NCBI GenBank assembly: GCA_964016885.1
Contig: OZ024761.1
Location: 3,782,001-3,846,000, forward strand
Source: Eledone cirrhosa
Taxonomy: Eukaryota
Direction of reading: 5' to 3'
DNA length: 64,000 bases
Of this stretch, positions 18,986 to 64,000 are shown piece by piece. The notes under the pieces were generated by a model, which saw nothing but the letters and a program-made list of their open reading frames with translations, ran no database searches and had not been told where the DNA came from. A program made the translations under genes and the position numbers. The stretch's first letter is position 1. Each line of letters starts with the position of its first letter.

Positions 18986-19818
18986 TTAAGGTATGGTTTA
19001 ATTTAACCCAGAGACCTAGGTACATTCCTCTCACTGCAATCCCAGGTTTCCTTCATCTGTCCCCCATTTTAAATTGTCATCAAGTAATTTTTCACCTAAG
19101 CTCTATATTAACATGACCAAGCTTTATAAATTTCAATAATTCTATTGTCCCAAACTGGATTAACCCTTTAGCATTTAAACTGGCCATATCTGGCCAGAAT
19201 TCTCTCACCTCTTTCTATTCAAACCAGCTGTAGCCAGCTGCTCATACTTATGTTAAGGTATTGTTCTCAAAATAAATAATAGGAAAATCTCGTAGATATG
19301 ATATTATGTGAGATATTATGTGAGATAAAGTGTTTACCATGAAAATACAATAGTATATATAGAGTAATGTAAATGTTATGTGAGATATTATGTGAGGTAA
19401 AGTCTTTACTGTGAAAATACAATAGTATATATAGAGTAATGTAAATGTTATGTGAGATATTATGTAAGGTAAAGCCTTTACTGTGAAAATATAATAATAT
19501 ATATAGAGTACTGTAAATGTTATGTGAGATATTATGTAAGGTAAAGCCTTTACTGTAAAAATATAATAGTATGTATAGAGTGGTTTCTTTATTTGCCACT
19601 AGGGCACAAAAGGTAGGGACAGATACAAGGGGGGAAGTTTACATATAATTAACGAGTACAAAAATATAACAATGAAATAACAACAACAAACGAAGTCCTC
19701 AATAGGGAGGGGGCATTAACATGGGTCGCACACACCCCGGAAAAAATGTGTAACCCTTCTCCTCAGGAGCACAAAGAGTAGGTGCTTCCCTCGTCTCCGC
19801 TTTTTCCTCTTCTTTCAC

Positions 19819-22800
19819 CTACAGGCTGATATAGAGAGAAGACCCATTCACTCTGGCCATTCTCCCTACTTTCACCCACCTTTCATAAAACTTGCTGGGG
19901 TAGAGCACCTCTCTCTCCATTCTGATCCTTCTTTTAAAATGGTATTTGAAAAAGGGGACCAGTTGTTGGCCGGAGAGAAAGGTGTCTGACCTCAGCCCTT
20001 TCAGCCTCGTCCACCATACAACTTCTTTAGCCATGGCTACCACACAGAGAAAAACCGCCTCTCCTTCGTTTTTGAAAGGGGGAGGCGGTTTGATCGTGAC
20101 AATGGACTCGGTGGTCAACCGGATTGGTCCCACCCTCGACAGTAGTCGTTCCACATAGCCCCACAGGTCAGCAATGCCTGGGCAGTGTACGAATGCGTGC
20201 GCAACGGTTTCGTCATCATGCACGCATCTCGGACAGATCTTATTCAAAGGATCTCTACCCAGGCTCCCATGCCTGTGGAGCTTGTCTCGAACGGGTAGAG
20301 CCCCTCGGTAGCACTGCCAAGCCAGGGACTTTTGGAAGTTGTCCATCGGTCCAGGGCCAAACGTCCTACCGAACAGACTGGCCAGTTCATCTTCCTCCAT
20401 GCCTAGAGCTTCTCCGAGAGCATCGTCGCACCTGCTGCGTACCAACCCTCTATAGAATGTCGAGGTGGAGTCTCCACTGATTGCCGGGTCCGCTTTCCAG
20501 AGGGCCGTGAGCGCCTGGGCACATTCAATGTGCCAGTCGTCCACTTTTCTCGGTCTTTGCTTGACCCAGGATTGCAGCTCGGTGAGCGAGACGAGTCTGG
20601 GAAAGGCTCGCCTCACAAACGGGGCCCACACCGGTTGACCGGTGAGGAATACCTGGAGGTGCCGTAGCCTTAATGCGTGTTTACGCATCTGTAGCCACGG
20701 CATCCCCAGCCCTCCTTTCGAAGGGTGTTGACAGCAGATGGATCTCCTCACCAAAGGGGTCCGCTTGTTCCAAAGAAATTGGAACAGCGCGCACTCCATT
20801 TTGGCGAGTCTTTTCACTGGGCAAGGCACGACGGTCAAGCGGTAGTAGATGACGGATGCTATATAAGTATTCGCCACCTCCGCTCGACCTTTCAGGGATA
20901 GTTTGCACTGGGCCCACTTCTGGGTGAGTGCAAACACCCTGGCCGTTACCTCGTTCCAGTTTTTCTCCACCTGGAGGTCTGGTCCGAACCAGACCCCAAG
21001 CAGCTTCACCGGGCCCTCCGTCCAGCGTCCGACGACGTCGTTGGAGGGCATCGGTTTGCCTCTCCATGTTCCGAGTTGCAAACCGACGGACTTGTCCCGG
21101 TTCAGCTTGGCTCCTGTAAACCTTTCATATTCCTCCAGTAAGGTGCCGATCTCACCGATTTGCGAGGTTTTCGACACCATTACTGTCACGTCATCGGCGT
21201 AGGCCGACGCCGCTTTCTGCAATCCCGGTTCCAAAGGGATGCCCTGCAACCGCTCCAACTTCCGCAGTAGTGGCTCAAGAGCCAGCACATACAGTAGGGA
21301 GGAGAGAGGGCATCCCTGTCGGATGGATCGCATGATTTGGAACGGCTCCGAGAGGTGGCCGTTCACCTTGACCCTTGAGCAGACGTTGCTGCTGTGCATC
21401 GCAGCAATCCAACCCCTGAAAACGGGTCCGAAGCCTGCCGCCGCGAGCACCGCATCCAGGTAACGATGGTCAACCCTATCGAAAGCTTTAGATTGATCCA
21501 AGTTGATCAGGGCCCCACCAAAGCCGGGTTCATTCCCTACCCTCTCTATGATGTATCGCATAAGGTGGAGATTGTCGTGAATGGACCTGGACGGGATTGC
21601 GCATGTCTGCGCTTCTCCCACCAGGTTTCCAACGACAAGCGCCAACCTCTTCGCTAACACCTTGGCCAAAATCTTTAACTCTGTATTTAGCAGAGTTATG
21701 GGCCTGAAGTTACTTATGTCATCCCCCTTGTTCTCATCCTTCCTCACCAGCGTAACTACGCCCTTGGTCACAGAACTGGGAATTCTCCCGTTCTGCTGCC
21801 AGTTGCAGTAGACCGCTTCGAGGATATCGGAGAACAAGTCCGGCATCGCTACATATAGCTCGTATGGTAGACCATCGAGACCCGGGGATTTGCGTTTGCC
21901 GCATTGGCTCAGCGCCGCCCCTATCTCAGCAGCTGAAATCGTCCTTTCGCAGGACTTCGCCTCCGCGTCCGAGAGGCGCGGCAGACCGTCGAGGTATGGA
22001 TTGAAATCCATAGTCTCACCCGGCGCGCCGCCCCTCTCGAACAGTCGTGCAAAGTGCCGCTGAAAGGCCGCACACATCTGCCCAGGTTCAAGGATCACAC
22101 GCCCATCCTGGTCCTTCAAAGACCGAATCGTGGACTTGTTCCCACTTTTTGCCTCTGTCACTCGGGCCCAGCTTACAGCTTTGGCTCCCTCATTACCCAG
22201 AGCACGTATTTTACTCCTGACAACGCAGCCTTCATGCTTCACCTCAAAGAACTGGTCTAAGGCCATTCTTGATGCCAGCACGCCGGCTACATTGCCACTC
22301 CTAATCGCCTCTTCTACTCTATCTACTAATTCCCTTTCCGTCTTGTTCCTATCCCTTGCTAATTCCTGACTAAAACCTATCGATTCTATTCTAATTGCTC
22401 TCTTAAGAGAGCTCCACCACCTGTTGTTGACAATTGCCCCTGTCAAATTCTGCTTAACTAACGTGCTAATCCGTTTACTGTAAGCTTTGCTTCTCGGTAA
22501 GGACAAGTTCAGCTTCCAGTAACCGGGTCCCTGTCTATGGGTTCTATCAAGGTTGGCTATGCAGGTCACTAACTTGTGATCCGAATAGTCAACCATGAAC
22601 ATTTTTGGACAGCTAAATGTGTCCCTATCGTTCTCTCTAACTAGGACCCTATCTAGGTACGACCTAGATGTTCCACTGCGATTGGTCCACGTCCATAGTG
22701 GTACAGTCGGAAAATCTAGTCGATATCTATCGGCCAGGTCAAATCGGCCGATTAACCTTTTGAGGCTTTTACACCCCCCTCTATTGGCACATGCCCCTAC

Positions 22801-23256
22801 ATAGTCCCAACGTGCATCCAGGATACCATTCCAGTCCCCCACTAAAAGCAAGGAGCGGGACGTTCCCAGAAAAGTTTCCAGACGTTGGAAGTATTCCGGC
22901 CGCGCTGCCCAAAAAGGGGCGTACACAGCTATTAGTCTAAGGGCTCCACTTTCACTACTGCCGACGTCTAAAACCACCAGTCGACCCTCCGGGTCCAGGT
23001 GCACCTTCTGTATGGCGAGGCCCAGGTGTTTTCGCAGCAGAACGACAACTCCACCCCCACCCCCCGGTTGACAGAGAGATGCGAAGATCTCAAAGTCGTC
23101 GAAGAGGGGCGCCAGTTGGTGCTCGCTGCTGATCCTGGACTCGCAAATAGCCATTACATCCATTCTATGTGACCTGAGATCGTTTAAAAGTTTGCCTTGT
23201 TTCCAAGACAGTCCCAGGCCACGTACATTCAGAAACCCAACTCTTATATCAGCCAT
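19819..23256 (-). CDS. LINE ORF2: APE endonuclease + reverse transcriptase + C-terminal Cys/His zinc finger (1145 aa)
   Basis: APE motifs NVRGL, ICES, GDWN, SYLDRV, SDH. RT motifs KSPGLDGLPYE, NFRPITLLN, KAFDRV, RQGCPLS, YADD. Zinc finger CPRC-x8-H-x4-C. Confidence 0.97.
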   Translation of the reverse strand: MADIRVGFLNVRGLGLSWKQGKLLNDLRSHRMDVMAICESRISSEHQLAPLFDDFEIFASLCQPGGGGGVVVLLRKHLGLAIQKVHLDPEGRLVVLDVGSSESGALRLIAVYAPFWAARPEYFQRLETFLGTSRSLLLVGDWNGILDARWDYVGACANRGGCKSLKRLIGRFDLADRYRLDFPTVPLWTWTNRSGTSRSYLDRVLVRENDRDTFSCPKMFMVDYSDHKLVTCIANLDRTHRQGPGYWKLNLSLPRSKAYSKRISTLVKQNLTGAIVNNRWWSSLKRAIRIESIGFSQELARDRNKTERELVDRVEEAIRSGNVAGVLASRMALDQFFEVKHEGCVVRSKIRALGNEGAKAVSWARVTEAKSGNKSTIRSLKDQDGRVILEPGQMCAAFQRHFARLFERGGAPGETMDFNPYLDGLPRLSDAEAKSCERTISAAEIGAALSQCGKRKSPGLDGLPYELYVAMPDLFSDILEAVYCNWQQNGRIPSSVTKGVVTLVRKDENKGDDISNFRPITLLNTELKILAKVLAKRLALVVGNLVGEAQTCAIPSRSIHDNLHLMRYIIERVGNEPGFGGALINLDQSKAFDRVDHRYLDAVLAAAGFGPVFRGWIAAMHSSNVCSRVKVNGHLSEPFQIMRSIRQGCPLSSLLYVLALEPLLRKLERLQGIPLEPGLQKAASAYADDVTVMVSKTSQIGEIGTLLEEYERFTGAKLNRDKSVGLQLGTWRGKPMPSNDVVGRWTEGPVKLLGVWFGPDLQVEKNWNEVTARVFALTQKWAQCKLSLKGRAEVANTYIASVIYYRLTVVPCPVKRLAKMECALFQFLWNKRTPLVRRSICCQHPSKGGLGMPWLQMRKHALRLRHLQVFLTGQPVWAPFVRRAFPRLVSLTELQSWVKQRPRKVDDWHIECAQALTALWKADPAISGDSTSTFYRGLVRSRCDDALGEALGMEEDELASLFGRTFGPGPMDNFQKSLAWQCYRGALPVRDKLHRHGSLGRDPLNKICPRCVHDDETVAHAFVHCPGIADLWGYVERLLSRVGPIRLTTESIVTIKPPPPFKNEGEAVFLCVVAMAKEVVWWTRLKGLRSDTFLSGQQLVPFFKYHFKRRIRMEREVLYPSKFYERWVKVGRMARVNGSSLYISL

Positions 23257-23277
23257 GTTGGTTAAAAGAGGAAGGAC

Positions 23278-25008
23278 CTACCTGTTCGGCTCCTGAGGAG
23301 CAGGTTGCACAATATCCATGGGCGTATTGGAGGGGTTGTTTGGTGGGGTGTTGTTCTGTGGTGGAGTGGGGGTGTTTGGTGAGGTGTGGGTGGGGAAACG
23401 TTTCAAGAGGACGCGGTTATAGGGTCGAGTACATGTTTTCCCCACGTCCTCAGGAAAGTTCTCTCTTAGTTTTGCATAGATGTCCATTGGGAGTCTTATC
23501 ATTTTTAAATGCGGTTTGTTGGCCGCGCTTGCAAAGAATTGCCCTTCAGTTTCCACCAAAGGGTCTTTGTGTATTGTTTTTACTAGTTCTTTGTTATTTG
23601 TGTTAATGTATGTATACTGTTTTATTTGTGTTGTGTTTGTTTGTTGTTCTTGTGTGTGCTTACGTTTTGTTGTATGTGTTATGTTTTGGGGTGGGGCGGA
23701 TTTTGTTTGTTCTGTTTGTTTTGTTTTTGTTGGTGGTTGTGTGTTTGTTTCGTTTATGTTCGAGTGGTGCTTTCTTTTTTTCCTTTTTACAGGTTGGAAG
23801 GGTTCCCCCTCTTCGTCACTAGGTGCCGTTTCCGCTGGGTCCTCGTCCGTGCTGTCGGGTAGTGGTGTATTTTGGGGTTTTGTTGTATTTGTGTGTGTTT
23901 TGGGAGTTGTTTTGGGTGGGGCCGTGTCTTGTGTTATTTTTCCCTGTTGTTTTTGTTGTTGTTGTGGTGGTGGTGGTGGAGGTGGTGGTGGCGGTGGTGG
24001 TGTGTGGGGTGTAGGCAAAAGAGCCTTTTTTTTTGTCAATTGAGGACAAGCAGCCCTTAGATGACCCCTGCTTGAACAGTAGTAACATATGGGCCTCCTA
24101 CCCTCGGCTGAAATATATATAAATGTTTCTCCATCGAGGGACACCCTCTGTGGTATTCTAGCGATTCGTTCTGGTCTCATTTGGACCAGAACCTCCACGC
24201 TCAAACCGCCGAAAACGTCTGTGGTGACTTCTCCTACTGAGAGGATTCCGTCCTCGTCTTCTAAAAATCCTGTTAGTACCCAGGAAATGCATGCATTTGG
24301 CCGGATTCCGGAGACCCTTATCTTCTGCGTTCTTTTCCCTAAATATGTGGGGAAAAATGTATATATCTTGGAAACAATTGGTGCCACAGAGTATTTCCTG
24401 GCCGTCAATTGATCCTTCATTAGGACCGTTATATTCCCATAGAGTGGCCCTTTTTGTATGAACGATATATCACTCCACACATTTTTTAGGACCAGCTCAA
24501 TCTCTTTTTGGGATAATTGAGTTGGTTTCCTTGTTATGTTTGAAATTGTTCTGAAAGATATCGTTCTTAGCGTCGTGTCTCTTTTGATTTCTTGTGGGGA
24601 GGTGATTGTGAAGTCTCCTCCTTCTTTGAAAGTTACATACTGTTTCGCTTCCTTCATCTTTTCTCTCAGAGTTGTAATGTCCAGTTGCTTGCAGGTTTGT
24701 GTTTTCCGGACCGCCTGTGCAAAGGAGGTACCAGTAGTGGGTTCACTTTGTTTGGTGTTATCGTTATTTTTTCCTTGGTTGGTGTTGTGACTATTGCTGT
24801 TATTGTCGTTGATGTTTTTGTCTGCGTTTATGTGACTTTCTGGGTTTTCACCCATTTCTACAAATTTTTCTTTTAATTCCGTGTTCCATGTTTCTTTTGC
24901 AGAAGTGAGGAGGGAAGACTTAGAGCCTTGTGCTTCTAGCTTCTCTGTATCACCTTTCTTAGGGGGCGTGGCTTTCACGTTAGGATGAGATGTGAAAATT
25001 CCGTCCAT
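23278..25008 (-). CDS. LINE ORF1 (gag-like, CCHC zinc knuckle, Pro/Thr-rich tail), ~576 aa from ATG 25008
   Basis: CYYCSSRGHLRAAC (CX2CX4HX4C), poly-Pro tract and basic KRKKRK. Ends 21 nt upstream of ORF2. Confidence 0.9.
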   Translation of the reverse strand: MDGIFTSHPNVKATPPKKGDTEKLEAQGSKSSLLTSAKETWNTELKEKFVEMGENPESHINADKNINDNNSNSHNTNQGKNNDNTKQSEPTTGTSFAQAVRKTQTCKQLDITTLREKMKEAKQYVTFKEGGDFTITSPQEIKRDTTLRTISFRTISNITRKPTQLSQKEIELVLKNVWSDISFIQKGPLYGNITVLMKDQLTARKYSVAPIVSKIYTFFPTYLGKRTQKIRVSGIRPNACISWVLTGFLEDEDGILSVGEVTTDVFGGLSVEVLVQMRPERIARIPQRVSLDGETFIYISAEGRRPICYYCSSRGHLRAACPQLTKKKALLPTPHTPPPPPPPPPPPPQQQQKQQGKITQDTAPPKTTPKTHTNTTKPQNTPLPDSTDEDPAETAPSDEEGEPFQPVKRKKRKHHSNINETNTQPPTKTKQTEQTKSAPPQNITHTTKRKHTQEQQTNTTQIKQYTYINTNNKELVKTIHKDPLVETEGQFFASAANKPHLKMIRLPMDIYAKLRENFPEDVGKTCTRPYNRVLLKRFPTHTSPNTPTPPQNNTPPNNPSNTPMDIVQPAPQEPNR

Positions 25009-25461
25009 TTCTATTAGTTTGCCGTAATAAATTTTTAACTGGAAAATTCGCCCCAAAAAGGGGCGAAAATAAATAAACTCAAAGTTTGACGACCAAGGCA
25101 AGGGGTTAACGTATATTACAGTATAAAAAAATTAATCAAAACTCACTTTTTGAGTAAGTAAATCCGACTCGGTAGCCGAGCTTGTTCACACACGTCAACA
25201 CACGTCTCTCGTATACGAGATGTTATGTGAGATATTATGTGAGGTAAAGCCTTTACTGTCAAAATACAATAGTATATATAGAGTACTGTAAATGTTATGT
25301 GAGATATTATGTAAGGTAAAGCCTTTACTGTCAAAATACAATAGTATATATAGAGTACTGTAAATGTTATGTGAGATATTATGTAAGGTAAAGCCTTTAC
25401 TGTGAAAATATAATAGTATATATGGAGTAATGTAAATGGAAAAGAGTTAAATAGCTATTAA

Positions 25462-25638
25462 TCCTTTAGCATATTATCTTACATAATATCTCACATAATA
25501 TCGAATCTATGAGATTTTGATATCATTTATTTTGAAAACAATACCTTAACATCAGTATGAGTGGCCAGTTACAGCTGGTTTGTACAGAAAAAGTTGAGAG
25601 AATTCTGGCTGGATATGGCTGGTTTAAATGCTAAAAGG
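25462..25638. mobile_element. Short copy of the same piggyBac-type element, opposite orientation, with only a fragment of the 72-bp unit
   Basis: TTAA|TCCTTTAGC ... GCTAAAAGG|TTAA. The body matches 31607-31729 and the reverse complement of 19164-19300. Confidence 0.75.
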
Positions 25639-25687
25639 TTAAAGAGAAGACATATGAAACTATAAATAGATTACAATATATATATAT

Positions 25688-25940
25688 ATCATCATCATCA
25701 TCCATGCTAGCATGGGTTAGACGGGATTGTCCCACTTGAGGCAAGATTGGTCGGGAGACCGTCTCTTGCTCGTATAGGACTGTATCTGGCAGGTTTTCTA
25801 CAGCTGGATGCCCATCCTAATACCAACCACTTTACAGTGTGGACTGGGAGCCTTTTTACTGTGTCTCCTACATGATCACTTTACAGTGTGGACTGGATGT
25901 TCTGTGGTACCAACATAACTTTACAGAGAAAGGATGGTGT
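25688..25940 (-). mobile_element. SINE/RTE 3' tail fragment
   Basis: (CAT)n followed by CTACAGCTGGATGCCC..CCTAATACCAACC and 48-bp-like units. Confidence 0.65.
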
Positions 25941-26895: not shown

Positions 26896-26996
26896 AATAT
26901 ATATATATATATGTGTGTGTGTATGTGTGAGTAGTGTGTGTGTTTGTTTGTATGCATGAGTGTTGATGTGTACATACAATAATAAAGGCATACATA

Positions 26997-27109
<113 letters not shown>

Positions 27110-27317: not shown

Positions 27318-29940
27318 TCATCATCATCATTTTATGTCTGCTTTTCCCTGCTTGCAAGGATTGGACCGGTCCTATTCAGCACACCATCTTTCCACTTGTC
27401 ACGGTCCTTCGTCATCTCCTCGGCGAGTTTCAGTGATCTGAGGTCTGCTCTCACCACCTCTGCCCATGTTTTTCGTGGTCTTCCTGTACTGCGTTTTCCT
27501 TCTACTGGGATTTCCTGGCACTTCTTACCCAGCGGTCATCCTCCATGCGCATCACATGTCCATACCATCTCAGCCTTCTCTCCTGCACACCACAACTTAT
27601 CCCTCTTATACCCAGTTTCGTTCTCAACTCGTCTATGCTTGGTCGTTCACGCACATTGACATTGCACATCCACCGGAGCATACTTGCTTCATTTCTCTCC
27701 AGCCGTCGCATATCTTCTGTAGTTGTTACCCATGTCTCACTACCATGCAGCATCGCGCATCTCACACAGGCATCATATAACTGTCCTTTTGTACACAGGG
27801 AGAAACCCTTCTTTGTCAACAGAGGAAGCAGCTCCCTAAACTTCTTCCAACCCGTCCTTATTCTAGATACTATGGCCTCGAAGCACCCCCCTCCCATGCT
27901 AATCTGATCACCTAAGTACCGGAAGCTATCAACCACTTCTATAGAACCCACCTGCATTGGAATAATGAGTCTATCACAGCGATTACTACTGCCAACTTTC
28001 CCTGTAAATCTACTGCATACATTGTTTTCCCTACCCGTTAGTTTGCCTGCTATCCAACTACATCTCTTGTGTACCCAAGATCTGCATTGCATACATTTTA
28101 TGGAATTTATGCCAGTTCCTTTCCTATATCGAACATGGCCATTTCCCTGATGGAATCAGAGTATTGTCCTCTCTTCTACTTATGAACACTTTTGTTTTAG
28201 CTATGTTCACTCTCAGGCCTCTTGATTCCAACTGCTGTTTCCATAGCCAGAATTTATTCTCTAGCTCCTCTACTGATTCTGCTATAAGAACCAGATCATC
28301 AGCATAGAGAAGTTCCTATGGGCATCCAGTCTTAAGCTCCTCTGTTATAGCTTGGAGGACTATAATGAACAAGAGTGGGCTGAGGACCAAACCTTGATGT
28401 ACATCTACTTGTATCTTGAATTCCTCACTAAACTCCATTCCTATTCTCACTTTACTGACAGCACCCCTGTACATAGTTTACACTGTCCTCACAAGCCATT
28501 CCTCAACGCCTAGTTTCCTTAGGGACCACCAGATGACAGATCGGGGTACCCTATCAAAGGCCTTCTCTAGGTCAACAAAAGCTAAGTATAGTGGCTTATT
28601 CTTCTCTAAGAACCTCTCTTGTAGTTGCCCCACTAAAAAGAGGGCATCTGTTGTACTTTTTCCAGGTACAAAACCAAACTGCATCTCATCTAGTTTGACC
28701 CTTTCTCTAATCAGTTGTGCTAATATCCTTTCTGCCACTTTCATAACCTGATCCATCAGTTTTATACCCCTATAATTGCTCCTTTCTAGAGCATCCCCTT
28801 TACCTTTGTAGCAATTTATGAGAATACTGCTGCTCCAGTCTTTGGGTATGACACCACCATATATAGCCTGATTGATGATGCATGCAACCAGTTTAGTGCC
28901 TACGTCCCCTGATGCCTTCAGCATCTCAGCAACTATCCCCGACGGTCCAACAGCCTTACCATTCTTCATTTCTTAATTGCCTCTTGTACCCTATATTCGT
29001 CAATCTCAATAGCTGGTCCCTTTGTCGGATCTACTGGGGATAATTCCACTCTGTCCCATTCGTTCTCTACATTCATCAGTCTCTCATAATGACATTTCCA
29101 GGCTTCCTTCTTTTGATCATTCGTGACACTAAGTACACCGGCATCATTCCGGACACATTTATCTCCAACAACATCCTGATTTGCACTGACACACTGCCTT
29201 GTGGAACACCACATGTCTCTGATCTTCCCATCACAGAACATTGGCAAACCTCCTACTCTCAGCCTCCCTGCGTGCTAAGTACACCTGGCCTCTAGCTTCT
29301 TTCTTAGCAGCTGTGTATCCGTCTCTACTCCCACCATTTTTCCAAGCTTTCCATGCTAGTCTTTTGTCTCTAATGGCCCTATCTACTGTGCTGTTCCACC
29401 ACCAGGTCACTCTTTGTCTGGTTGGAGCTCTGCCCCAACCACAAGTTTCATCAGTAGCCTGCAGTAAGTTGTCACATAAGAAATTCCAGTTATCATCCAT
29501 GTCATACGTCTCTAAATCGTTTTCTTTTTCGTCGTACACGTCTTGAAAGGCTTTCCTAAATTTGTATTTTAGTGAAAGGTCTTTTAGCTTCCAAACCTTT
29601 CTTCTCCACACCTTCCTGTATGTCTCATTCCGTCTCTTGCTTACTGAGATATCACTAACGACTAACCTATGCTGTGGGGTACATTCTTCCCCAGGGTAAG
29701 CCTTAGTATTTGACACCATCCATCTGTCTCGCTGTCTAACTAGCAGGAAGTCAATCTGGCTTATGTGTTCGTCTGATTTGTAAGTTATTAGGTGGTTAGT
29801 AGGCTTCTGGAAGTTAGTGTTGCAAATGGTCAGTGCATTTGCATCACAAAATTCAAGAAGCCTCACTCCTTCTTCATTTCTTGAGCCGTAACCGTGCCTA
29901 CCATGTACCCCAGTGTATCCATCCTGGAGCTGTCCAATTG
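27318..29940 (-). mobile_element. Decayed RTE-clade LINE (APE + RT, frameshifted), 5'-truncated
   Basis: RNEEGVRLLEFC...SQIDF (APE); GKAVGPSGI, NYRGIKL, QFGFVPGKST, DLEKAFDRV, LYADD (RT); RRLRWYGHV; (TGA)n tail. Broken into several ORFs. Confidence 0.93.
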
Positions 29941-30590: not shown

Positions 30591-31729
30591 CCCTTTAGTC
30601 TTTACATTACTCTATATATACTATTGTATTTTCATGGTAAAGGCTTTACCTCACATAATATCTCACATAACATTTACATTACTCTATATATACTATTGTA
30701 TTATCACAGTAAAGGTTTTACCTCACATAATATCTCACATAACATTTACATTACTCTATATATACTATTGTATTTTCACAGTAAAGGCTTTACCTCACAT
30801 AATATCTCACATAACATTTACATTAATCTATATATACTATTGTATTTTCACAGTAAAGGCTTTACCTCACATAATATCTCACATAACATTTACATTAATC
30901 TATATATACCATTGTATTTTCACAGTAAAGGCTTTACCTCACATAATATCTCACATAACATTTACATTACTCTATATATACCATTGTATTTTCACAGTAA
31001 AGGCTTTACCTCACATAATATCTCACATAACATTTACATTACTCTATATATACTATTGTATTTTCACAATAAAGGCTTTACCTCACATAATATCTCACAT
31101 AACATTTACATTACTCTATATATACTATTGTATTTTCACAGTAAAGACTTTACCTCACATAATATCTCACATAACATTTACATTACTCTATATATACCAT
31201 TGTATTTTCACAGTAAAGGCTTTACCTCACATAATATCTCACATAACATTTACATTACTCTATATATACCATTGTATTTTCACAGTAAAGGCTTTACCTC
31301 ACATAATATCTCACATAACATTTACATTACTCTATATATACCATTGTATTTTCACAGTAAAGACTTTACCTCACATAATATCTCACATAACATTTATATT
31401 ACTCTATATATACCATTGTATTTTCACAGTAAAGGCTTTACCTCACATAATATCTCACATAACATTTACATTACTCTATATATACCATTGTATTTTCACA
31501 GTAAAGGCTTTACCTCACATAATATCTCACATAACATTTACATTACTCTATATATACCATTGTATTTTCACAGTAAAGGCTTTACCTCACATAATATCTC
31601 ACATAATGTCGAATCTATGAGATTTTTAATGTTTATTTTGAGAAAAATACCTTAATGTCAGTATGAGGCACTGAACAGAAAGAGATGAAAGAATTCTGGC
31701 CGAATATGAAAGGTTTAAATGCTAAAGGG
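30591..31729. mobile_element. Intact piggyBac-type non-autonomous element carrying ~14 x 72-bp repeats (empty Tx1 target array)
   Basis: TTAA|CCCTTTAG ... CTAAAGGG|TTAA, i.e. TTAA duplication and CCCTTTAG terminal inverted repeats. 72-bp units at 30601-31606. Confidence 0.85.
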
Positions 31730-52900: not shown

Positions 52901-55900
52901 TGGCCAGTTACAGCTGGTTTAAATGTTAAAGGGTTAAGTGTTTAACAACCTTGATATCCAGGGTATTGGACATTAGAGAGTTCTGGCCAGTTACAGCTGG
53001 TTTAAATGTTAAAGGGTTAAGGGTTTAACAACCTTGATAGCCAGGGTATTGGACATTAGAGAGTTCTGGCCAGTTACAGCTGGTTTAAATGTTAAAGGGT
53101 TAAGGGTTTAACAACCTTGATAGCCAGGGTATTGGACATTAGAGAGTTCTGGCCAGTTACAGCTGGTTTAAATGTTAAAGGGTTAAGGGTTTAACAACCT
53201 TGATATCGAGGGTATTGGACATTAGAGAGTTCTGGCCAGTTACAGCTGGTTTAAATGTTAAAGGGTTAATGGTTTAACAACCTTGATAGCCAGGGTATTG
53301 GACATTAGAGAGTTCTGGCCAGTTACAGCTGGTTTAAATGTTAAAGGGTTAAGGGTTTAACAACCTTGATATCCAGGGTATTGTATTGGACATTAGAGAG
53401 TTCTGGCCAGTTACAGCTGGTTTAAATGTTAAAGGGTTAAGGGTTTAACAACCTTGATAGCCAGGGTATTGGACATTGGTGAGTTCTGGCCAGTTATAGC
53501 TGGTTTAAATGTTAAAGGGTTAAGGGTTTAACAACCTTGATATCCAGGGTATTGGACATTAGAGAGTTCTGGCCAGTTACAGCTGGTTTAAATGTTAAAG
53601 GGTTAAGGGTTTAACTACCTTGATATCCAGGGTATTGGACATTAGAGAGTTCTGGCCAGTTACAGCTGGTTTAAATGTTAAAGGGTTAAGGGTTTAACAA
53701 CCTTGATAGCCAGGGTATTGGACATTAGAGAGTTCTGGCCAGTTACAGCTGGTTTAAATGTTAAAGGGTTAAGGGTTTAACTACCTTGATATCCAGGGTA
53801 TTGGACATTAGAGAGTTCTGGCCAGTTTCAGCTGGTTTAAATGTTAAAGGGTTAAGGGTTTAACAACCTTGATAGCCAGGGTATTGGACATTAGAGAGTT
53901 CTGGCCAGTTACAGCTGGTTTAAATATTAAAGGGTTAAGGGTTTAACGACCTTGATATCCAGAGTATTTGACATTAGAGAGTTCTGGCCAGTTACAGCTG
54001 GTTTAAATGTTAAAGGGTTAAGGGTTTAACAACCTTGATAGCCAGGGTTTTGGGCATTAGAGAGTTCTGACCAGTTACAGCTGGTTTAAATGTTAAAGGG
54101 TTAAGGGTTTAACAACCTTGATATCCAGGGTATTGGACATTAGAGAGTTCTGGCCAGTTACAGCTGGTTTAAATGTTAAAGGGTTAAGGGTTTAACTACC
54201 TTGATATCCAGGGTATTGGACATTAGAGAGTTCTGGCCAGTTACAGCTGGTTTAAATGTTAAAGGGTTAAGGGTTTAACAACCTTGATATCCAGGGTATT
54301 GGACATTAGAGAGTTCTGGCCAGTTACAGCTGGTTTAAATGTTAAAGGGTTAAGGGTTTAACAACCTTGATATCCAGGGTATTGGACATTAGAGAGTTCT
54401 GGCCAGTTACAGCTGGTTTAAATGTTAAAGGGTTAAGGGTTTATCAACCTTGATATCCAGGGTATTGGACATTAGAGAGTTCTGGCCAGTTACAGCTGGT
54501 TTAAATGTTAAAGGGTTAAGGGTTTAACTACCTTGATATCCAGGGTATTGGACATTAGAGAGTTCTGGCCAGTTACAGCTGGTTTAAATGTTAAAGGGTT
54601 AAGGGTTTAACAACCTTGATATCCAGAGTATTTGACATTAGAGAGTTCTGGCCAGTTACAGCTGGTTTAAATGTTCAAGGGTTAAGGGTTTAACAACCTT
54701 GATATCCAGGGTATTGGACATTAGAGAGTTCTGGCCAGTTACAGCTGGTTTAAATGTTAGAGGGTTAAGGGTTTAACTACCTTGATATCCAGGGTATTGG
54801 ACATTAGAGAGTTCTGGCCAGTTACAGCTGGTTTAAATGTTAAAGGGGTGAGAGTTTAACAACCTTGATAGCCAAGGTATTGGACATTAGAGAGTTCTGG
54901 CCAGTTACAGCTGGTTTAAATGTTAAAGGGTTAAGGGTTTAACAACCTTGATATCCAGGGTATTGGACATGAAAGAGTTCTGGCCAGTTACAGCTGGTTT
55001 AAATGTTAAAGGGTTAAGGGTTTAACAACCTTGATAGCCAGGGTATTGGACATTAGAGAGTTCTGGCCAGTTACAGCTGGTTTAAATGTTAAAGGGTTAA
55101 GTGTTTAACAACCTTGATATCCAGGGTATTGGACATTAGAGAGTTCTGGCCAGTTACAGCTGGTTTAAATGTTAAAGGTTCAATGGTTTAACAACCTTGA
55201 TAGCCAGGGTATTGGACATTAGAGAGTTCTGACCAGTTACAGCTGGTTTAAATGTTAAAGGGGTGAGGGTTTAACAACCTTGATAGCCAGGGTATTGGAC
55301 ATTAGAGAGTTCTGGCCAGTTACAGCTGGTTTAAATGTTAAAGGGTGAAGGTTTAACAACCTTGATATCCAGGGTATTGGACATTAGAGAGTTCTGGCCA
55401 GTTACAGCTGGTTTAAATGTTAAAGGTTCAACGGTTTAACAACCTTGATATCCAGGGTATTGGACATTAGAGAGTTCTGGCCAGTTACAGCTAGTTTAAA
55501 TGTTAAAGGGTTAAGTGTTTAACAACCTTGATAGCCAGGGTATTGGACATTAGAGTGTTCTGGCCTGTTACAGCTGGTTTAAATGTTAAAGAGTTAAGGG
55601 TTTAACAACCTTGATAGCCAGGGTATTGGACATTAGAGAGTTCTGGCCAGTTACAGCTGGTTTAAATGTTAAAAGGTTAAGTGTTTAACAACCTTGATAG
55701 CCAGGGTATTGGACATTAGAGAGTTCTGGCCAGTTACAGCTGGTTTAAATGTTAAAGGGTTAAGGGTTTAACTCCCTTGATATCCAGGGTATTGGACATT
55801 AGAGAGTTCTGGCCAGTTACAGCTGGTTTAAATGTTAAAGGGTTAAGTGTTTAACAACCTTGATAGCCAGGGTATTGGACATTAGAGAGTTCTGGCCAGT

Positions 55901-56381
55901 TACAGCTGGTTTAAATGTTAAAGGGTTAAGGGTTTAACAACCTTGATATCCAGGGTATTGGACATTAGAGAGTTCTGGCCAGTTACAGCTGGTTTAAATG
56001 TTAAAGGGTTAAGGGTTTAACAACCTTGATATCCAGGGTGTTGGACATTAGAGAGTTCTGGCCAGTTACAGCTGGTTTAAATGTTAAAGGGTTAAGGGTT
56101 TAACAACCTTGATAGCCAGGGTATTGGACATTAGAGAGTTCTGGCCACTTACAGCTGGTTTAAATGTTAAAGGGTTAAGTGTTTAACAACCTTGATAGCC
56201 AGGGTATTGGACATTAGAGAGTTCTGGCCAGTTACAGCTGGTTTAAATGTTCAAGGGTTAAGGGTTTAACAACCTTGATATCCAGGGTATTGGACATTAG
56301 AGAGTTCTGGCCAGTTACAGCTGGTTTAAATGTTAAAGGGTTAAGGGTTTAACAACCTTGATAGCCAGGGTATTGGACATG
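49986..56381. repeat. 83-bp satellite, ~77 highly homogeneous units, derived from the piggyBac-type element terminus plus flank
   Basis: Unit GAGAGTTCTGGCCAGTTACAGCTGGTTTAAATGTTAAAGGG-TTAA-GGGTTTAACAACCTTGATAKCCAGGGTATTGGACATTA. Confidence 0.97.
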
Positions 56382-56865: not shown

Positions 56866-59245
56866 TATGTGAGATATTATGTGAGGTAAAGCCTTTACTG
56901 TGAAAATACAACAGTATATATAGAGTAATGTAAATGTTATGTGAGGTATTATGTGAGGTATAGCCTTTACTGTGAAAATATAATAGTATATATAGAGTAA
57001 TGTAAATGTTATGTGAGATATTATGTGAGGTAAAGCCTTTACTGTGAAAATACAATAGTATATATAGAGTAATGTAAATGTTATGTGAGGTATTATGTGA
57101 GGTATAGCCTTTACTGTGAAAATATAATAGTATATATAGAGTAATGTAAATGTTATGTGAGATATTATGTGAGGTATAGCCTTTACTGTGAAAATATAAT
57201 AGTATATATAGAGTAATGTAAATATTATGTGAGATATTATGTGAGGTAAAGCCTTTACTGTGAAAATACAATAGTATATATAGAGTAATGTAAATGTTAT
57301 GTGAGATATTATGTGAGGTAAAGCCTTTACTGTGAAAATACAATAGTATATATAGAGTAATGTAAATGTTATGTGAGATATTATGTGAGGTAAAGCCTTT
57401 ACTGTGAAAATACAATAGTATATATAGAGTAATGTAAATATTATGTGAGATATTATGTGAGGTAAAGACTTTACTGTGAAAATACAATAGTATATATAGA
57501 GTAATGTAAATGTTATGTGAGATATTATGTGAGGTAAAACCTTTACTGTGAAAATACAATAGTATATATAGAGTAATGTAAATATTATGTGAGATATTAT
57601 GTGAGGTAAAGCTTTTACTGTGAAAATACAATAGTATATATAGAGTAATGTAAATGGTATGTGAGATATTATGTGAGGTAAAGCCTTTACTGTGAAAATA
57701 CAATAGTATATATAGAGTAATGTAAATGTTATGTGAGGTATTATGTGAGGTAAAGCCTTTACTGTGAAAATACAATAGTATATATAGAGTAATGTAAATA
57801 TTATGTGAGATATTATGTGAGGTAAAGCTTTTACTGTGAAAATACAATAGTATATATAGAGTAATGTAAATGGTATGTGAGATATTATGTGAGGTAAAGC
57901 CTTTACTGTGAAAATACAATAGTATATATAGAGTAATGTAAATGTTATGTGAGGTATTATGTGAGGTAAACCCTTTACTGTGAAAATACAATAGTATATA
58001 TAGAGTAATGTAAATGTTATGTGAGATATTATGTGAGGTAAAGCCTTTACTGTGATAATACAATAGTATATATAGAGTAATGTAAATATTATGTGAGATA
58101 TTATGTGAGGTAAAGCCTTTACTGTGAAAATACAATAGTATCATCATCATCATCTCATCTTCGTTTAACGTCCACTTTTCACCCTAGCATGAGTTAGACA
58201 GGAGTTGTCCCATTTGAAGCAAGGTTGGTCGGGTGACCGTGTCTCGCTCATATAGGACTATCTGGCAGGTTTTCTACGGCTGGATGCATTCTGTATTACA
58301 CTTTGTCCCGTCTTCTAGTAAGGATATAATCTATCTGGCTGGCGTGTTCCCCTGATCTACAGGTGATCAAGTGGTTTTCACGTTTTTTGAAGTTTGTGTT
58401 ACAGATAGTTAGGTTATTGCCGTCACAGAATTCCAGGATTCTGAAGCCTTCCTCATTTCTATTTCCAAACCCATAGCCTCCATGGATTCCATCATAGCCA
58501 TCATTATGTTGTCCAACGTGGCTGTTTAGATCGCCAGCAATAATTAAGTAGTCGCTGTCAGTTATTTGGGAGGTAGTGTGCATTAGCAGCTCATAGAACC
58601 TGTCCTTTATAACGTCAGGTAGGCCATATTGGGGTGCATAAGCGGATATTATTGTCACAGTAGTTTTATTTAGAATTAGTCTTATTTTAATTATTCTGTC
58701 ATTCACTCTATTTACGTCAATTGCCTTATCTACCCATTTTTCAGCTAACATAATTCCTACTCCACCCAGTCCGTTGTCGTTGTCCGTTGTCCATTTCCCA
58801 CCCAGAAAAGTTTATAGCATCGTTTTTTACCCACGATGAATCTGGCAGAGCCCCCTCTCCACCTAGTCTCTTGAATACAATAAACATCAACTTCTTTACG
58901 TTCAAGTATCTCTACAACCTCATTTGAGCGACCTTTCAATGTGCCTACGTTCATGGAGTAATGTAAATGTTATGTGAGATATTATGTGAGGTAAAGTCTT
59001 TACTGTGAAAATACAATAGTATATATAGAGTAATGTAAATGTTATGTGAGATATTATGTGAGGTAAAGCCTTTACTGTGAAAATACAATAGTATATATAG
59101 AGTAATGTAAATGTTATGAGATATTATGTGAGGTAAAGCCTTTACTGTGAAAATACAATAGTATATATAGAGTAATGTAAATGTTATGTGAGATATTATG
59201 TGAGGTAAAGCCTTTACTGTGAAAATACAATAGTATATATAGAGT
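56866..59245. repeat. 72-bp tandem array (~17 + 4 units) interrupted by an RTE fragment and ending at Tx1 copy 2
   Basis: Unit TGTGAGATATTATGTGAGGTAAAGCCTTTACTGTGAAAATACAATAGTATATATAGAGTAATGTAAATGTTA. ORF 56741..58153 is an artefact. Confidence 0.95.
58141..58956 (-). mobile_element. Internally deleted RTE element (APE N-terminus joined to 3' tail)
   Basis: NVGTLKGR...CIQETRW, ISAYAPQ, AGDLN, SQIDY, then directly the 3' tail and (TGA)n. Confidence 0.85.
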
Positions 59246-59482
59246 GGTTTCTTTATTTGCCACTAGGGCACAAAAGGTAGGGACAGATACAAGGGGGGAA
59301 GTTTACATATAATTAACGAGTACAAAAATATAACAATGAAATAACAACAACAAACGAAGTCCTCAATAGGGAGGGGGCATTAACATGGGTCGCACACACC
59401 CCGGAAAAAATGTGTAACCCTTCTCCTCAGGAGCACAAAGAGTAGGTGCTTCCCTCGTCTCCGCTTTTTCCTCTTCTTTCAC

Positions 59483-62400
59483 CTACAGGCTGATATAGAG
59501 AGAAGACCCATTCATTCTGGCCATTCTCCCTACTTTCACCCACCTTTCATAAAACTTGCTGGGGTAGAGCACCTCTCTCTCCATTCTGATCCTTCTTTTA
59601 AAATGGTATTTGAAAAAAGGGACCAGTTGTTGGCCGGAGAGAAAGGTGTCTGACCTCAGCCCTTTCAGCCTCGTCCACCATACAACTTCTTTAGCCATGG
59701 CTACCACACAGAGAAAAACCGCCTCTCCTTCGTTTTTGAAAGGGGGAGGCGGTTTGATCGTGACAATGGACTCGGTGGTCAACCGGATTGGTCCCACCCT
59801 CGACAGTAGTCGTTCCACATAGCCCCACAGGTCAGCAATGCCTGGGCAGTGTACGAATGCGTGCGCAACGGTTTCGTCATCATGCACGCATCTCGGACAG
59901 ATCTTATTCAAAGGATCTCTACCCAGGCTCCCATGCCTGTGGAGCTTGTCTCGAACGGGTAGAGCCCCTCGGTAGCACTGCCAAGCCAGGGACTTTTGGA
60001 AGTTGTCCATCGGTCCAGGGCCAAACGTCCTACCGAACAGACTGGCCAGTTCATCTTCCTCCATGCCTAGAGCTTCTCCGAGAGCATCGTCGCACCTGCT
60101 GCGTACCAACCCTCTATAGAATGTCGAGGTGGAGTCTCCACTGATTGCCGGGTCCGCTTTCCAGAGGGCCGTGAGCGCCTGGGCACATTCAATGTGCCAG
60201 TCGCCCACTTTTCTCGGTCTTTGCTTGACCCAGGATTGCAGCTCGGTGAGCGAGACGAGTCTGGGAAAGGCTCGCCTCACAAACGGGGCCCACACCGGTT
60301 GACCGGTGAGGAATACCTGGAGGTGCCGTAGCCTTAATGCGTGTTTACGCATCTGTAGCCACGGCATCCCCAGCCCTCCTTTCGAAGGGTGTTGACAGCA
60401 GATGGATCTCCTCACCAAAGGGGTCCGCTTGTTCCAAAGAAATTGGAACAGCGCGCACTCCATTTTGGCGAGTCTTTTCACTGGGCAAGGCACGACGGTC
60501 AAGCGGTAGTAGATGACGGATGCTATATAAGTATTCGCCACCTCCGCTCGACCTTTCAGGGATAGTTTGCACTGGGCCCACTTCTGGGTGAGTGCAAACA
60601 CCCTGGCCGTTACCTCGTTCCAGTTTTTCTCCACCTGGAGGTCTGGTCCGAACCAGACCCCAAGCAGCTTCACCGGGCCCTCCGTCCAGCGTCCGACGAC
60701 GTCGTTGGAGGGCATCGGTTTGCCTCTCCATGTTCCGAGTTGCAAACCGACGGACTTGTCCCGGTTCAGCTTGGCTCCTGTAAACCTTTCATATTCCTCC
60801 AGTAAGGTGCCGATCTCACCGATTTGCGAGGTTTTCGACACCATTACTGTCACGTCATCGGCGTAGGCCGACGCCGCTTTCTGCAATCCCGGTTCCAAAG
60901 GGATGCCCTGCAACCGCTCCAACTTCCGCAGTAGTGGCTCAAGAGCCAGCACATACAGTAGGGAGGAGAGAGGGCATCCCTGTCGGATGGATCGCATGAT
61001 TTGGAACGGCTCCGAGAGGTGGCCGTTCACCTTGACCCTTGAGCAGACGTTGCTGCTGTGCATCGCAGCAATCCAACCCCTGAAAACGGGTCCGAAGCCT
61101 GCCGCCGCGAGCACCGCATCCAGGTAACGATGGTCAACCCTATCGAAAGCTTTAGATTGATCCAAGTTGATCAGGGCCCCACCAAAGCCGGGTTCATTCC
61201 CTACCCTCTCTATGATGTATCGCATAAGGTGGAGATTGTCGTGAATGGACCTGGACGGGATTGCGCATGTCTGCGCTTCTCCCACCAGGTTTCCAACGAC
61301 AAGCGCCAACCTCTTCGCTAACACCTTGGCCAAAATCTTTAACTCTGTATTTAGCAGAGTTATGGGCCTGAAGTTACTTATGTCATCCCCCTTGTTCTCA
61401 TCCTTCCTCACCAGCGTAACTACGCCCTTGGTCACAGAACTGGGAATTCTCCCGTTCTGCTGCCAGTTGCAGTAGACCGCTTCGAGGATATCGGAGAACA
61501 AGTCCGGCATCGCTACATATAGCTCGTATGGTAGACCATCGAGACCCGGGGATTTGCGTTTGCCGCATTGGCTCAGCGCCGCCCCTATCTCAGCAGCTGA
61601 AATCGTCCTTTCGCAGGACTTCGCCTCCGCGTCCGAGAGGCGCGGCAGACCGTCGAGGTATGGATTGAAATCCATAGTCTCACCCGGCGCGCCGCCCCTC
61701 TCGAACAGTCGTGCAAAGTGCCGCTGAAAGGCCGCACACATCTGCCCAGGTTCAAGGATCACACGCCCATCCTGGTCCTTCAAAGACCGAATCGTGGACT
61801 TGTTCCCACTTTTTGCCTCTGTCACTCGGGCCCAGCTTACAGCTTTGGCTCCCTCATTACCCAGAGCACGTATTTTACTCCTGACAACGCAGCCTTCATG
61901 CTTCACCTCAAAGAACTGGTCTAAGGCCATTCTTGATGCCAGCACGCCGGCTACATTGCCACTCCTAATCGCCTCTTCTACTCTATCTACTAATTCCCTT
62001 TCCGTCTTGTTCCTATCCCTTGCTAATTCCTGACTAAAACCTATCGATTCTATTCTAATTGCTCTCTTAAGAGAGCTCCACCACCTGTTGTTGACAATTG
62101 CCCCTGTCAAATTCTGCTTAACTAACGTGCTAATCCGTTTACTGTAAGCTTTGCTTCTCGGTAAGGACAAGTTCAGCTTCCAGTAACCGGGTCCCTGTCT
62201 ATGGGTTCTATCAAGGTTGGCTATGCAGGTCACTAACTTGTGATCCGAATAGTCAACCATGAACATTTTTGGACAGCTAAATGTGTCCCTATCGTTCTCT
62301 CTAACTAGGACCCTATCTAGGTACGACCTAGATGTTCCACTGCGATTGGTCCACGTCCATAGTGGTACAGTCGGAAAATCTAGTCGATATCTATCGGCCA

Positions 62401-62920
62401 GGTCAAATCGGCCGATTAACCTTTTGAGGCTTTTACACCCCCCTCTATTGGCACATGCCCCTACATAGTCCCAACGTGCATCCAGGATACCATTCCAGTC
62501 CCCCACTAAAAGCAAGGAGCGGGACGTTCCCAGAAAAGTTTCCAGACGTTGGAAGTATTCCGGCCGCGCTGCCCAAAAAGGGGCGTACACAGCTATTAGT
62601 CTAAGGGCTCCACTTTCACTACTGCCGACGTCTAAAACCACCAGTCGACCCTCCGGGTCCAGGTGCACCTTCTGTATGGCGAGGCCCAGGTGTTTTCGCA
62701 GCAGAACGACAACTCCACCCCCACCCCCCGGTTGACAGAGAGATGCGAAGATCTCAAAGTCGTCGAAGAGGGGCGCCAGTTGGTGCTCGCTGCTGATCCT
62801 GGACTCGCAAATAGCCATTACATCCATTCTATGTGACCTGAGATCGTTTAAAAGTTTGCCTTGTTTCCAAGACAGTCCCAGGCCACGTACATTCAGAAAC
62901 CCAACTCTTATATCAGCCAT
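59483..62920 (-). CDS. LINE ORF2 (APE-RT-zf), 1145 aa, intact
   Basis: I see only two amino-acid differences from copy 1 (KVDDW/KVGDW and RVNGS/RMNGS). Confidence 0.97.
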   Translation of the reverse strand: MADIRVGFLNVRGLGLSWKQGKLLNDLRSHRMDVMAICESRISSEHQLAPLFDDFEIFASLCQPGGGGGVVVLLRKHLGLAIQKVHLDPEGRLVVLDVGSSESGALRLIAVYAPFWAARPEYFQRLETFLGTSRSLLLVGDWNGILDARWDYVGACANRGGCKSLKRLIGRFDLADRYRLDFPTVPLWTWTNRSGTSRSYLDRVLVRENDRDTFSCPKMFMVDYSDHKLVTCIANLDRTHRQGPGYWKLNLSLPRSKAYSKRISTLVKQNLTGAIVNNRWWSSLKRAIRIESIGFSQELARDRNKTERELVDRVEEAIRSGNVAGVLASRMALDQFFEVKHEGCVVRSKIRALGNEGAKAVSWARVTEAKSGNKSTIRSLKDQDGRVILEPGQMCAAFQRHFARLFERGGAPGETMDFNPYLDGLPRLSDAEAKSCERTISAAEIGAALSQCGKRKSPGLDGLPYELYVAMPDLFSDILEAVYCNWQQNGRIPSSVTKGVVTLVRKDENKGDDISNFRPITLLNTELKILAKVLAKRLALVVGNLVGEAQTCAIPSRSIHDNLHLMRYIIERVGNEPGFGGALINLDQSKAFDRVDHRYLDAVLAAAGFGPVFRGWIAAMHSSNVCSRVKVNGHLSEPFQIMRSIRQGCPLSSLLYVLALEPLLRKLERLQGIPLEPGLQKAASAYADDVTVMVSKTSQIGEIGTLLEEYERFTGAKLNRDKSVGLQLGTWRGKPMPSNDVVGRWTEGPVKLLGVWFGPDLQVEKNWNEVTARVFALTQKWAQCKLSLKGRAEVANTYIASVIYYRLTVVPCPVKRLAKMECALFQFLWNKRTPLVRRSICCQHPSKGGLGMPWLQMRKHALRLRHLQVFLTGQPVWAPFVRRAFPRLVSLTELQSWVKQRPRKVGDWHIECAQALTALWKADPAISGDSTSTFYRGLVRSRCDDALGEALGMEEDELASLFGRTFGPGPMDNFQKSLAWQCYRGALPVRDKLHRHGSLGRDPLNKICPRCVHDDETVAHAFVHCPGIADLWGYVERLLSRVGPIRLTTESIVTIKPPPPFKNEGEAVFLCVVAMAKEVVWWTRLKGLRSDTFLSGQQLVPFFKYHFKRRIRMEREVLYPSKFYERWVKVGRMARMNGSSLYISL

Positions 62921-62941
62921 GTTGGTTAAAAGAGGAAGGAC

Positions 62942-64000
62942 CTACCTGTTCGGCTCCTGAGGAGCAGGTTGCACAATATCCATGGGCGTATTGGAGGGGT
63001 TGTTTGGTGGGGTGTTGTTCTGTGGTGGAGTGGGGGTGTTTGGTGAGGTGTGGGTGGGGAAACGTTTCAAGAGGACGCGGTTATAGGGTCGAGTACATGT
63101 TTTCCCCACGTCCTCAGGAAAGTTCTCTCTTAGTTTTGCATAGGTGTCCATTGGGAGTCTTATCATTTTTAAATGCGGTTTGTTGGCCGCGCTTGCAAAG
63201 AATTGTCCTTCAGTTTCCACCAAAGGGTCTTTGTGTATTGTTTTTACTAGTTCTTTGTTATTTGTGTTAATGTATGTATACTGTTTTATTTGTGTTGTGT
63301 TTGTTTGTTGTTCTTGTGTGTGCTTACGTTTTGTTGTATGTGTTATGTTTTGGGGTGGGGCGGATTTTGTTTGTTCTGTTTGTTTTGTTTTTGTTGGTGG
63401 TTGTGTGTTTGTTTCGTTTATGTTCGAGTGGTGCTTTCTTTTTTTCCTTTTTACAGGTTGGAAGGGTTCCCCCTCTTCGTCACTAGGTGCCGTTTCCGCT
63501 GGGTCCTCGTCCGTGCTGTCGGGTAGTGGTGTATTTTGGGGTTTTGTTGTATTTGTGTGTGTTTTGGGAGTTGTTTTGGGTGGGGCCGTGTCTTGTGTTA
63601 TTTTTCCCTGTTGTTTTTGTTGTTGTTGTGGTGGTGGTGGTGGAGGTGGTGGTGGTGGTGGTGGTGGCGGTGGTGGTGTGTGGGGTGTAGGCAAAAGAGC
63701 CTTTTTTTTTGTCAATTGAGGACAAGCAGCCCTTAGATGACCCCTGCTTGAACAGTAGTAACATATGGGCCTCCTACCCTCGGCTGAAATATATATAAAT
63801 GTTTCTCCATCGAGGGACACCCTCTGTGGTATTCTAGCGATTCGTTCTGGTCTCATTTGGACCAGAACCTCCACGCTCAAACCGCCGAAAACGTCTGTGG
63901 TGACTTCTCCTACTGAGAGGATTCCGTCCTCGTCTTCTAAAAATCCTGTTAGTACCCAGGAAATGCATGCATTTGGCCGGATTCCGGAGACCCTTATCTT
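62942..64000 (-). CDS. LINE ORF1, C-terminal part (start outside the window)
   Basis: Same CCHC knuckle as copy 1. The poly-Pro tract is 4 residues longer, and there is an I->T change. Confidence 0.9.
   Translation of the reverse strand, partial: KIRVSGIRPNACISWVLTGFLEDEDGILSVGEVTTDVFGGLSVEVLVQMRPERIARIPQRVSLDGETFIYISAEGRRPICYYCSSRGHLRAACPQLTKKKALLPTPHTPPPPPPPPPPPPPPPPQQQQKQQGKITQDTAPPKTTPKTHTNTTKPQNTPLPDSTDEDPAETAPSDEEGEPFQPVKRKKRKHHSNINETNTQPPTKTKQTEQTKSAPPQNITHTTKRKHTQEQQTNTTQIKQYTYINTNNKELVKTIHKDPLVETEGQFFASAANKPHLKMIRLPMDTYAKLRENFPEDVGKTCTRPYNRVLLKRFPTHTSPNTPTPPQNNTPPNNPSNTPMDIVQPAPQEPNR

Follow-up and report, generated by a model that had tools for sequence, protein, structure and literature searches.

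An apparently active, site-specific LINE with a putative target-like 5' leader in the 72-bp repeat arrays of a piggyBac-related MITE of Eledone cirrhosa

LINE copies and host elements in the window

The window analysed here is a stretch of 64,000 nucleotides of the Eledone cirrhosa genome (assembly GCA_964016885.1, contig OZ024761.1, positions 3,782,001 to 3,846,000 of the forward strand), and coordinates refer to it unless a contig is named. It carries two intact copies of a long interspersed nuclear element (LINE) of about 5.67 kb with two open reading frames (ORFs), belonging to the type that possesses an apurinic/apyrimidinic-like endonuclease (APE) and a reverse transcriptase (RT). Both copies are inserted in arrays of a 72-bp repeat, which belongs to a piggyBac-type miniature inverted-repeat transposable element (MITE).

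The host MITE of copy 1 (19164..25446, + strand) is split by the LINE. It has TTAA at 19160-19163 and 25447-25450, and its right end is degenerate. The 72-bp units on the 3' side of the LINE (19304..19581, + strand) are local and not element-derived, and the junction comes after ...ATAGAGT at 19581. The unique sequence of copy 1 (19582..25219, - strand, 5638 bp) terminates in ...AATAAAGAAACC without poly(A). ORF2 (19819..23256, - strand, 1145 amino acids) contains the APE endonuclease, RT and zf-RVT domains (PF03372, PF00078 and PF13966), and its catalytic motifs are present and align with those of human L1 ORF2p. ORF1 (23278..25008, - strand, 576 amino acids) shows one CCHC zinc knuckle at 307-323, which is weak and below the cut-off (E 0.0068). 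Upstream of the unique sequence lies a target-like 5' leader of 29 nt representing unit positions 8-36 (25220..25248, - strand), which is likely element-borne, followed by the remaining local array on the 5' side (25249..25438, + strand). Copy 2 (59246..64000, - strand) is cut by the window end; it is complete in the assembly (L073) and has the same 5' junction as copy 1. Next to it are an array of 17.7 units (56866..58141, + strand), an unrelated insert within that array (58142..58955, - strand), whose APE fragment scores below the Pfam cut-off, and the 72-bp units of its 3' side (58956..59245, + strand), the insertion being after 59245. The ORF2 frame is open over 1152 codons in both copies.

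In both copies the 3' junction reads ...AATAGTAT(G/A)TATAGAGT followed by GGTTTCTTTATTTGCC, at 19581/19582 and 59245/59246, at the identical base and in the identical orientation within the 72-bp unit. This shared junction had been claimed in the first-pass annotation of the window and is confirmed in the sequence. The same annotation had read the copies as independent insertions and not as a segmental duplication. Copy 2 is 99.63% identical to copy 1; they differ by 9 substitutions, and each has closer relatives on contigs elsewhere in the assembly, at 3 and 6 substitutions. The window copies are thus closer to copies elsewhere than to each other and, as had been proposed, are not one duplicated locus.

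The empty host MITE of the window (30591..31729, - strand) contains 14 units of 72 bp. It is bounded by TTAA and CCCTTTAG at one end and by CTAAAGGG and TTAA at the other. The basic form of the host is a TTAA-flanked MITE of about 220 bp with one unit, and all 20 copies sampled from the interior of contig C1 were of this single-unit type. The host has TTAA on both sides along with CCC...GGG termini, and the 72-bp array arose by tandem amplification of 72 subterminal bases that belong to the MITE itself. The array does lie inside the TTAA element, as annotated earlier, but it is not foreign cargo. Adjoining the host of copy 1, an internally deleted short copy of the host MITE is present in opposite orientation (25462-25638). 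Another tandem array (49987-56380, 77 copies, 96% alike) has an 83-bp unit containing a terminal piece of this MITE family and represents a second, independent satellite from the MITE end.

Autonomous piggyBac elements of 2567 bp were found with open 561-codon PF13843 frames. They are 97-99.9% alike and have CCCTTTAGC at the start of both ends. The same two end types occur in the host MITE and in these elements, the match extending over no more than the ends and brief subterminal segments. Intact transposase elements whose ends correspond to those of the MITE thus support the suggested piggyBac link. No target motif was detected at up to 2 mismatches in the three transposase elements checked. 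The autonomous elements constitute a young family (L182-L197, e.g. G000:C1:205015761-205016813), with copies up to 99.9% alike, which likely mobilises the host MITE. Outer flanks and unit numbers vary among the LINE-bearing hosts. In a Tx1C-type composite, a LINE is moved inside a DNA transposon. Such composite transposition, with the LINE plus its array at different TTAA sites, was not seen among 91 full-length records, since the sole pair with matching arrays (L075/L076) also matches in the outer flanks. The mobile, self-amplifying satellite proposed earlier is thus borne out only in part, given the single-unit state of the basic host and the lack of a transposed LINE-bearing composite in these records.

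Insertion site across the genome

The flanks of LINE copies were analysed genome-wide with two probes. There are 259 occurrences of the exact 24-nt 3' end, 256 of them directly after ATAGAGT. An internal 21-mer of the 3' untranslated region (UTR), a probe that makes no assumption about where the element ends, has 329 copies, and AGAGT is positioned 28-33 nt upstream of it in 320. Three of the nine exceptions were fetched and all three were at the target, one with a variant, one with a 2-bp loss and one with an end shorter by 12 nt. For detailed examination 101 records were used, comprising 39 of the 40 best genome matches, one neighbour, 60 others from the first 100 of the 259 listed places, and window copy 1. 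All of them are at one site, with ATAGAGT in 100 and ACAGAGT in one. In older copies (95-98% alike) the terminal GG is replaced by AA or GA, and their insertion base is unchanged. Only about 1% of the exact internal sites are filled (about 330 copies against 29,806 empty sites).

Among the 101 records, 91 reach the 5' end and eight are 5'-truncated; L154 is full-length with a small internal deletion and L153 has another repeat inserted in it. Of the 91 full-length records, 34 have both ORFs open. Elements with zero substitutions between them were found on different contigs, which points to very recent activity. Among DNA contigs of four and then three sequencing runs, one labelled as another organism spans the 3' junction, but with just 30 letters on one side, below the 31-letter threshold, and it was not counted. 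The earlier proposal of a sequence-specific and recent insertion thus agrees with the flanks throughout the genome, most 3'-UTR copies being at the target and not at unrelated or variable positions. Taken together, the sequence data indicate a real, sequence-specific and young LINE family which is apparently active.

The copies are not evenly placed. On the two largest contigs (G000:C1 and C2) LINE copies were observed no further than about 45 Mb from the ends, and single-unit MITEs also in the interior, hinting that arrays may be confined to the distal regions of contigs. Clusters of 5-6 head-to-tail copies, often 65 bp apart, are present at G000:C10:40.72-40.75 Mb and C1:4.22-4.26 Mb and represent a mixture of separate insertions and local duplications. 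In L077 (G000:C20:8668-16667) the LINE lies within an array of 38-bp derivative units; its 5' side carries two 72-bp units of canonical type, which may be a read-through leader of greater length. In the nearby paralogous loci L102 and L164, a different element, one segment of which is directly repeated, follows the same AGAGT base beyond the first 5'-side unit; by eye it looks like a fragment of the long terminal repeat (LTR) type.

The 5' junction and the putative 29-nt leader

The 5' junction, on which the first-pass annotation was silent, is no less fixed than the 3' one. In every one of the 91 full-length records the array resumes at unit position 8, giving an apparent loss of 7 bp, and the 29-mer after the 5' junction is identical in 86 of them. 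Over positions 8-32, the 5'-adjacent unit differs from the natural window unit in 4 of 2275 letters, while five other unit classes differ in 5.5-8.5%. Its positions 33-65 vary at the background rate, and so do those from 37 onwards. A variant common to both neighbouring units was present in the 5'-adjacent unit in 0 of 10 cases at positions 8-36 and in 25 of 34 at 37-72 (Fisher p 4e-5), the 10 events at 8-36 coming from 9 loci and about 7 separate arrays. No such donor tract was observed in the 3'-side unit, where the letters were local in 9/17 and 19/25, and the second unit on the 5' side is local as well (6/6 vs 0/6). As the 5'-adjacent unit ignores local variants at 8-36, about 29 target-like bases likely come with the element, and on the 5' side only.

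The truncated copies have a different kind of 5' junction. Six of the eight bear target duplications of 1-16 bp, and no unit follows in two of the eight as compared with none of the 91 full-length records. A long target duplication of 65 or 36 bp was considered for the 5' junction and ruled out, only 3 of 32 private variants being repeated. A hairpin between the leader and the 5' UTR, seen in the fold, was not significant, as 299/1000 and 62/1000 shuffles fold as well.

Proposed insertion mechanism and alternatives

On this sequence evidence, it is quite probable that a young two-ORF APE/RT LINE inserts at one base of the 72-bp repeat of the piggyBac-related MITE by a specific nick and target-primed reverse transcription, and that its 29-nt leader then anneals to the next unit. 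The ORF2 endonuclease would nick after ...ATATAGAGT, leaving a free 3' end that would prime the complementary DNA (cDNA). The 3' flank would then consist of local target DNA, in line with the observed pattern. A full-length cDNA would end in unit positions 8-36, pair with the next unit and replace its first 36 bases. Such replacement would explain why the 5' junction is uniform, why 7 bp appear to be lost and why donor letters stand at 8-36, and all three were observed. Early-stopping cDNAs would lack the leader and would mostly end in ordinary target duplications of 1-16 bp, again as in the observed pattern. The hallmarks of target-primed insertion are present in the fixed 3' end and in the 5' truncations with short duplications. 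The RNA could gain its leader by an internal promoter or by processing. Specificity need not rest on APE alone, as the 5' leader likely adds a second step based on homology.

Several points weigh against this mechanism. Truncated L124 has a 5' junction of the full-length type, equally expected from a fixed cut of the second strand 7 bp away; truncated L159 is a complex join; and the older copy L173 shows a 60-bp local unit in place of the full leader. Terminal sites make up 5,073 of the 34,879 exact sites genome-wide (14.5%; p 6e-7 for expectation against full-length copies), an expectation which is inflated by the many terminal sites in LINE-free regions, and the fairer within-array contrast amounts only to 0 vs 6, 3, 5 and 2. 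No Rfam ribozyme match was obtained for the 5' end in 24900-25700 at E up to 5. The sample of records is biased toward young copies and first-listed contigs. Local duplication accounts for some of the neighbouring copies (t2 and t4 are 2 substitutions apart, and L075/L076 are identical), so that copy counts overstate insertion events. We infer both the nick and the 5' end of the transcript from sequence.

Three other explanations were weighed. Targeting might depend mainly on pairing of the 3'-end RNA with DNA, read-through target sequence priming at less specific nicks, and not on the specificity of the endonuclease. The invariance of the last 7 bases before the junction (0/609 mismatches, against 1-3% elsewhere) would fit this, as would the lack of a poly(A) tail and the older 3' end AA, which equals the next two target bases. 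However, letters that vary 8-13 bases away from the junction follow the local array, and the Tx1L endonuclease by itself nicks its target almost exclusively (PMC1950540). The endonuclease has also diverged more than the RT from the nearest (ATT)n-flanked sister family described below (64% vs 82% identity, compared with 72% vs 79% between two sisters), which is suggestive only. On these grounds RNA pairing as the main determinant appears unlikely. We regard it as decidedly unlikely that a specific first nick is followed by a fixed second-strand cut 7 bp off, giving a plain 7-bp deletion in which 8-36 is uniform since the protein picks canonical units. L124, truncated but with the full-length type of junction, favors such a cut, and target-deleting top-strand cuts have been discussed for Utopia (PMC4640811). 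Against it, the 5'-adjacent unit in variant arrays is a chimera of canonical 8-36 and local 37-72 (L111), the truncated copies L129, L150, L155 and L148 are at sites without canonical 11-36, and most of the truncated copies show duplications instead of a deletion.

The shared site could also descend from one old insertion whose copies multiplied as DNA, through gene conversion, unequal exchange or piggyBac-moved MITEs bearing the LINE. Local duplicates within the head-to-tail clusters and the intact, near-identical transposase elements are compatible with such spread. But donor letters are restricted to the 5' side, the 3' site is common to 5'-truncated copies with short duplications, and three 3'-end subtypes (AA, GA and GG) are all at the same site. 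The varying unit numbers and outer flanks, with the single matching pair of records alike in its outer flanks too, also oppose it. As the main route, DNA-level spread is already largely refuted and we consider it very improbable. The specific nick followed by leader annealing therefore stays our preferred explanation.

Relatives and sister families

The closest named protein to ORF2 is from Argonauta hians, with 68% identity over the RT region, which fits an octopod host. In phmmer searches ORF2 scored 350 bits with Tetraodon Q76IM5 and 318 bits with Polyodon 'YTX2', against 184 bits with human L1 ORF2p, the protein names being automatic. ESM Atlas matches were unnamed RT/APE clusters only. 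In a quick tree of 80 rows (2 dropped), which held no curated Tx1 and no vertebrate L1 sequences, the LINE and fish proteins were grouped in an open 48-row node (node value 87) with plant L1-like rows outside. A separate ORF1 bearing a CCHC zinc knuckle is a feature of the Tx1 clade. The Tx1 identity given in the first-pass annotation is in keeping with the APE, RT and zf-RVT domains and with the Tx1-named fish matches; as no curated Tx1 reference was among the tree rows, membership of the clade is likely but not settled.

Sister LINE families (L211-L284, on many contigs) are very abundant. Two homologous C-terminal stretches served as queries and retrieved some 60,000 first-look candidates apiece, and many sister copies are full length with open frames, often head to tail and with (ATT)n on both sides. 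At the 3' end AATAAA followed by (ATT)n was found in 59 of 60 loci read (two pairs representing the same place), and (ATT)n is also ahead of the 5' end in all 14 longer stretches fetched. Their ORF2 is 68-71% identical to that of the LINE, with 62-64% in the endonuclease and 75-82% in the RT. The (ATT)n flanks of the sisters suggest a target switch in the MITE-targeting family; judged from this unrooted comparison, an ancestral lineage using (ATT)n is likely.

Other features of the window

Two further features were noted. A fragment of the RT of another retroelement is located at 28478-28972 (- strand). A 399-codon open frame at 7990-9186 (+ strand) matches the zinc carboxypeptidase Peptidase_M14 (E 2e-50); it is unusually long for a single exon and is possibly a retrocopy.

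Comparison with known systems and significance

Tx1L of Xenopus laevis sits in Tx1D, a non-autonomous piggyBac family (PMC4494074), and its endonuclease is specific in vitro (PMC1950540). The Eledone LINE resembles it as an APE-type LINE at a specific site within a non-autonomous piggyBac family. It differs in its host species and its target sequence, and its ORF2 is only distantly related to Tx1-named fish proteins (318-362 bits). The apparent 7-bp loss and the donor leader of the full-length Eledone copies also contrast with the target duplication of about 23 bp of Tx1L. Target fragments at 5' ends are reportedly mentioned in surveys of fish Tx1-clade elements. The crocodilian families Tx1-Mar and Tx1-9_AMi prefer a site within DNA transposons and have microsatellite-targeting relatives in the same genomes, and for SINEU-2 transcription from the flanking transposon was suggested (PMC4494074). 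Their targets are Mariner or Harbinger elements and the targeting is described as preferential, while the Eledone target is a piggyBac MITE. A fixed target-like leader is not reported for them in the sections of PMC4494074 that were covered. In fish, the Tx1 families Kibi and Koshi target (TC)n and (TTC)n (PMC4494074). The (ATT)n-flanked sisters share such microsatellite targeting, which the MITE-targeting family has left.

R2 elements with upstream-cleaving ribozymes have uniform 5' junctions, postulated to form when target sequence carried by the RNA, up to 36 nt long, anneals to the target, and springtail R2 has a fixed 7-bp deletion (PMC3774820). A uniform 5' junction with donor-derived target sequence is likewise observed for the Eledone LINE. 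R2 possesses a restriction-like endonuclease, a 28S ribosomal DNA target and a ribozyme like that of hepatitis delta virus; the Eledone LINE has an APE domain, two ORFs, a target in a transposon repeat and no Rfam ribozyme in the interval searched. Target choice is like that of Tx1L in Tx1D, and 5' joining is likely similar to that of R2.

An Octopus vulgaris annotation gives 13 recently active L1-Tx1 families and, by a term search, does not use the word 'target' (PMC13282606). A literature search, thin in its coverage of subscription papers, found neither the Eledone family described nor a Tx1 element with such a leader; a Repbase or Dfam entry is possible. The first-pass annotation had presented an invertebrate parallel of Tx1L/Tx1D not recognised as described. 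The family was indeed not found in the literature covered, whereas transposon targeting by Tx1 elements was already on record (PMC4494074). A LINE targeting another transposon is thus already known, and what is new here is the uniform 5' junction of the MITE-array LINE with its putative 29-nt leader.

On balance we favor the broader view that an APE-type LINE independently evolved precise 5' joining in the style of R2. By capturing 29 target bases as its leader it may have come to be full length in about nine of ten copies, with full-length copies confined to MITE arrays and the autonomous transposase elements spared, and this may have come with the switch from (ATT)n. The genome would then offer two closely related natural endonucleases that differ in their targets.

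The system represents a dependence at three levels, from the transposase element to the MITE with its arrays and to the LINE inhabiting these arrays. As a base-exact and apparently active APE-type retrotransposon, it offers hundreds of natural junctions which may illuminate the poorly understood joining of the second end of LINEs, and the (ATT)n-flanked sister families allow the target switch to be tested by direct comparison. Two-step targeting, by a specific nick along with a short homologous leader, would also bear on RNA-templated gene insertion, for which R2 is the main model.

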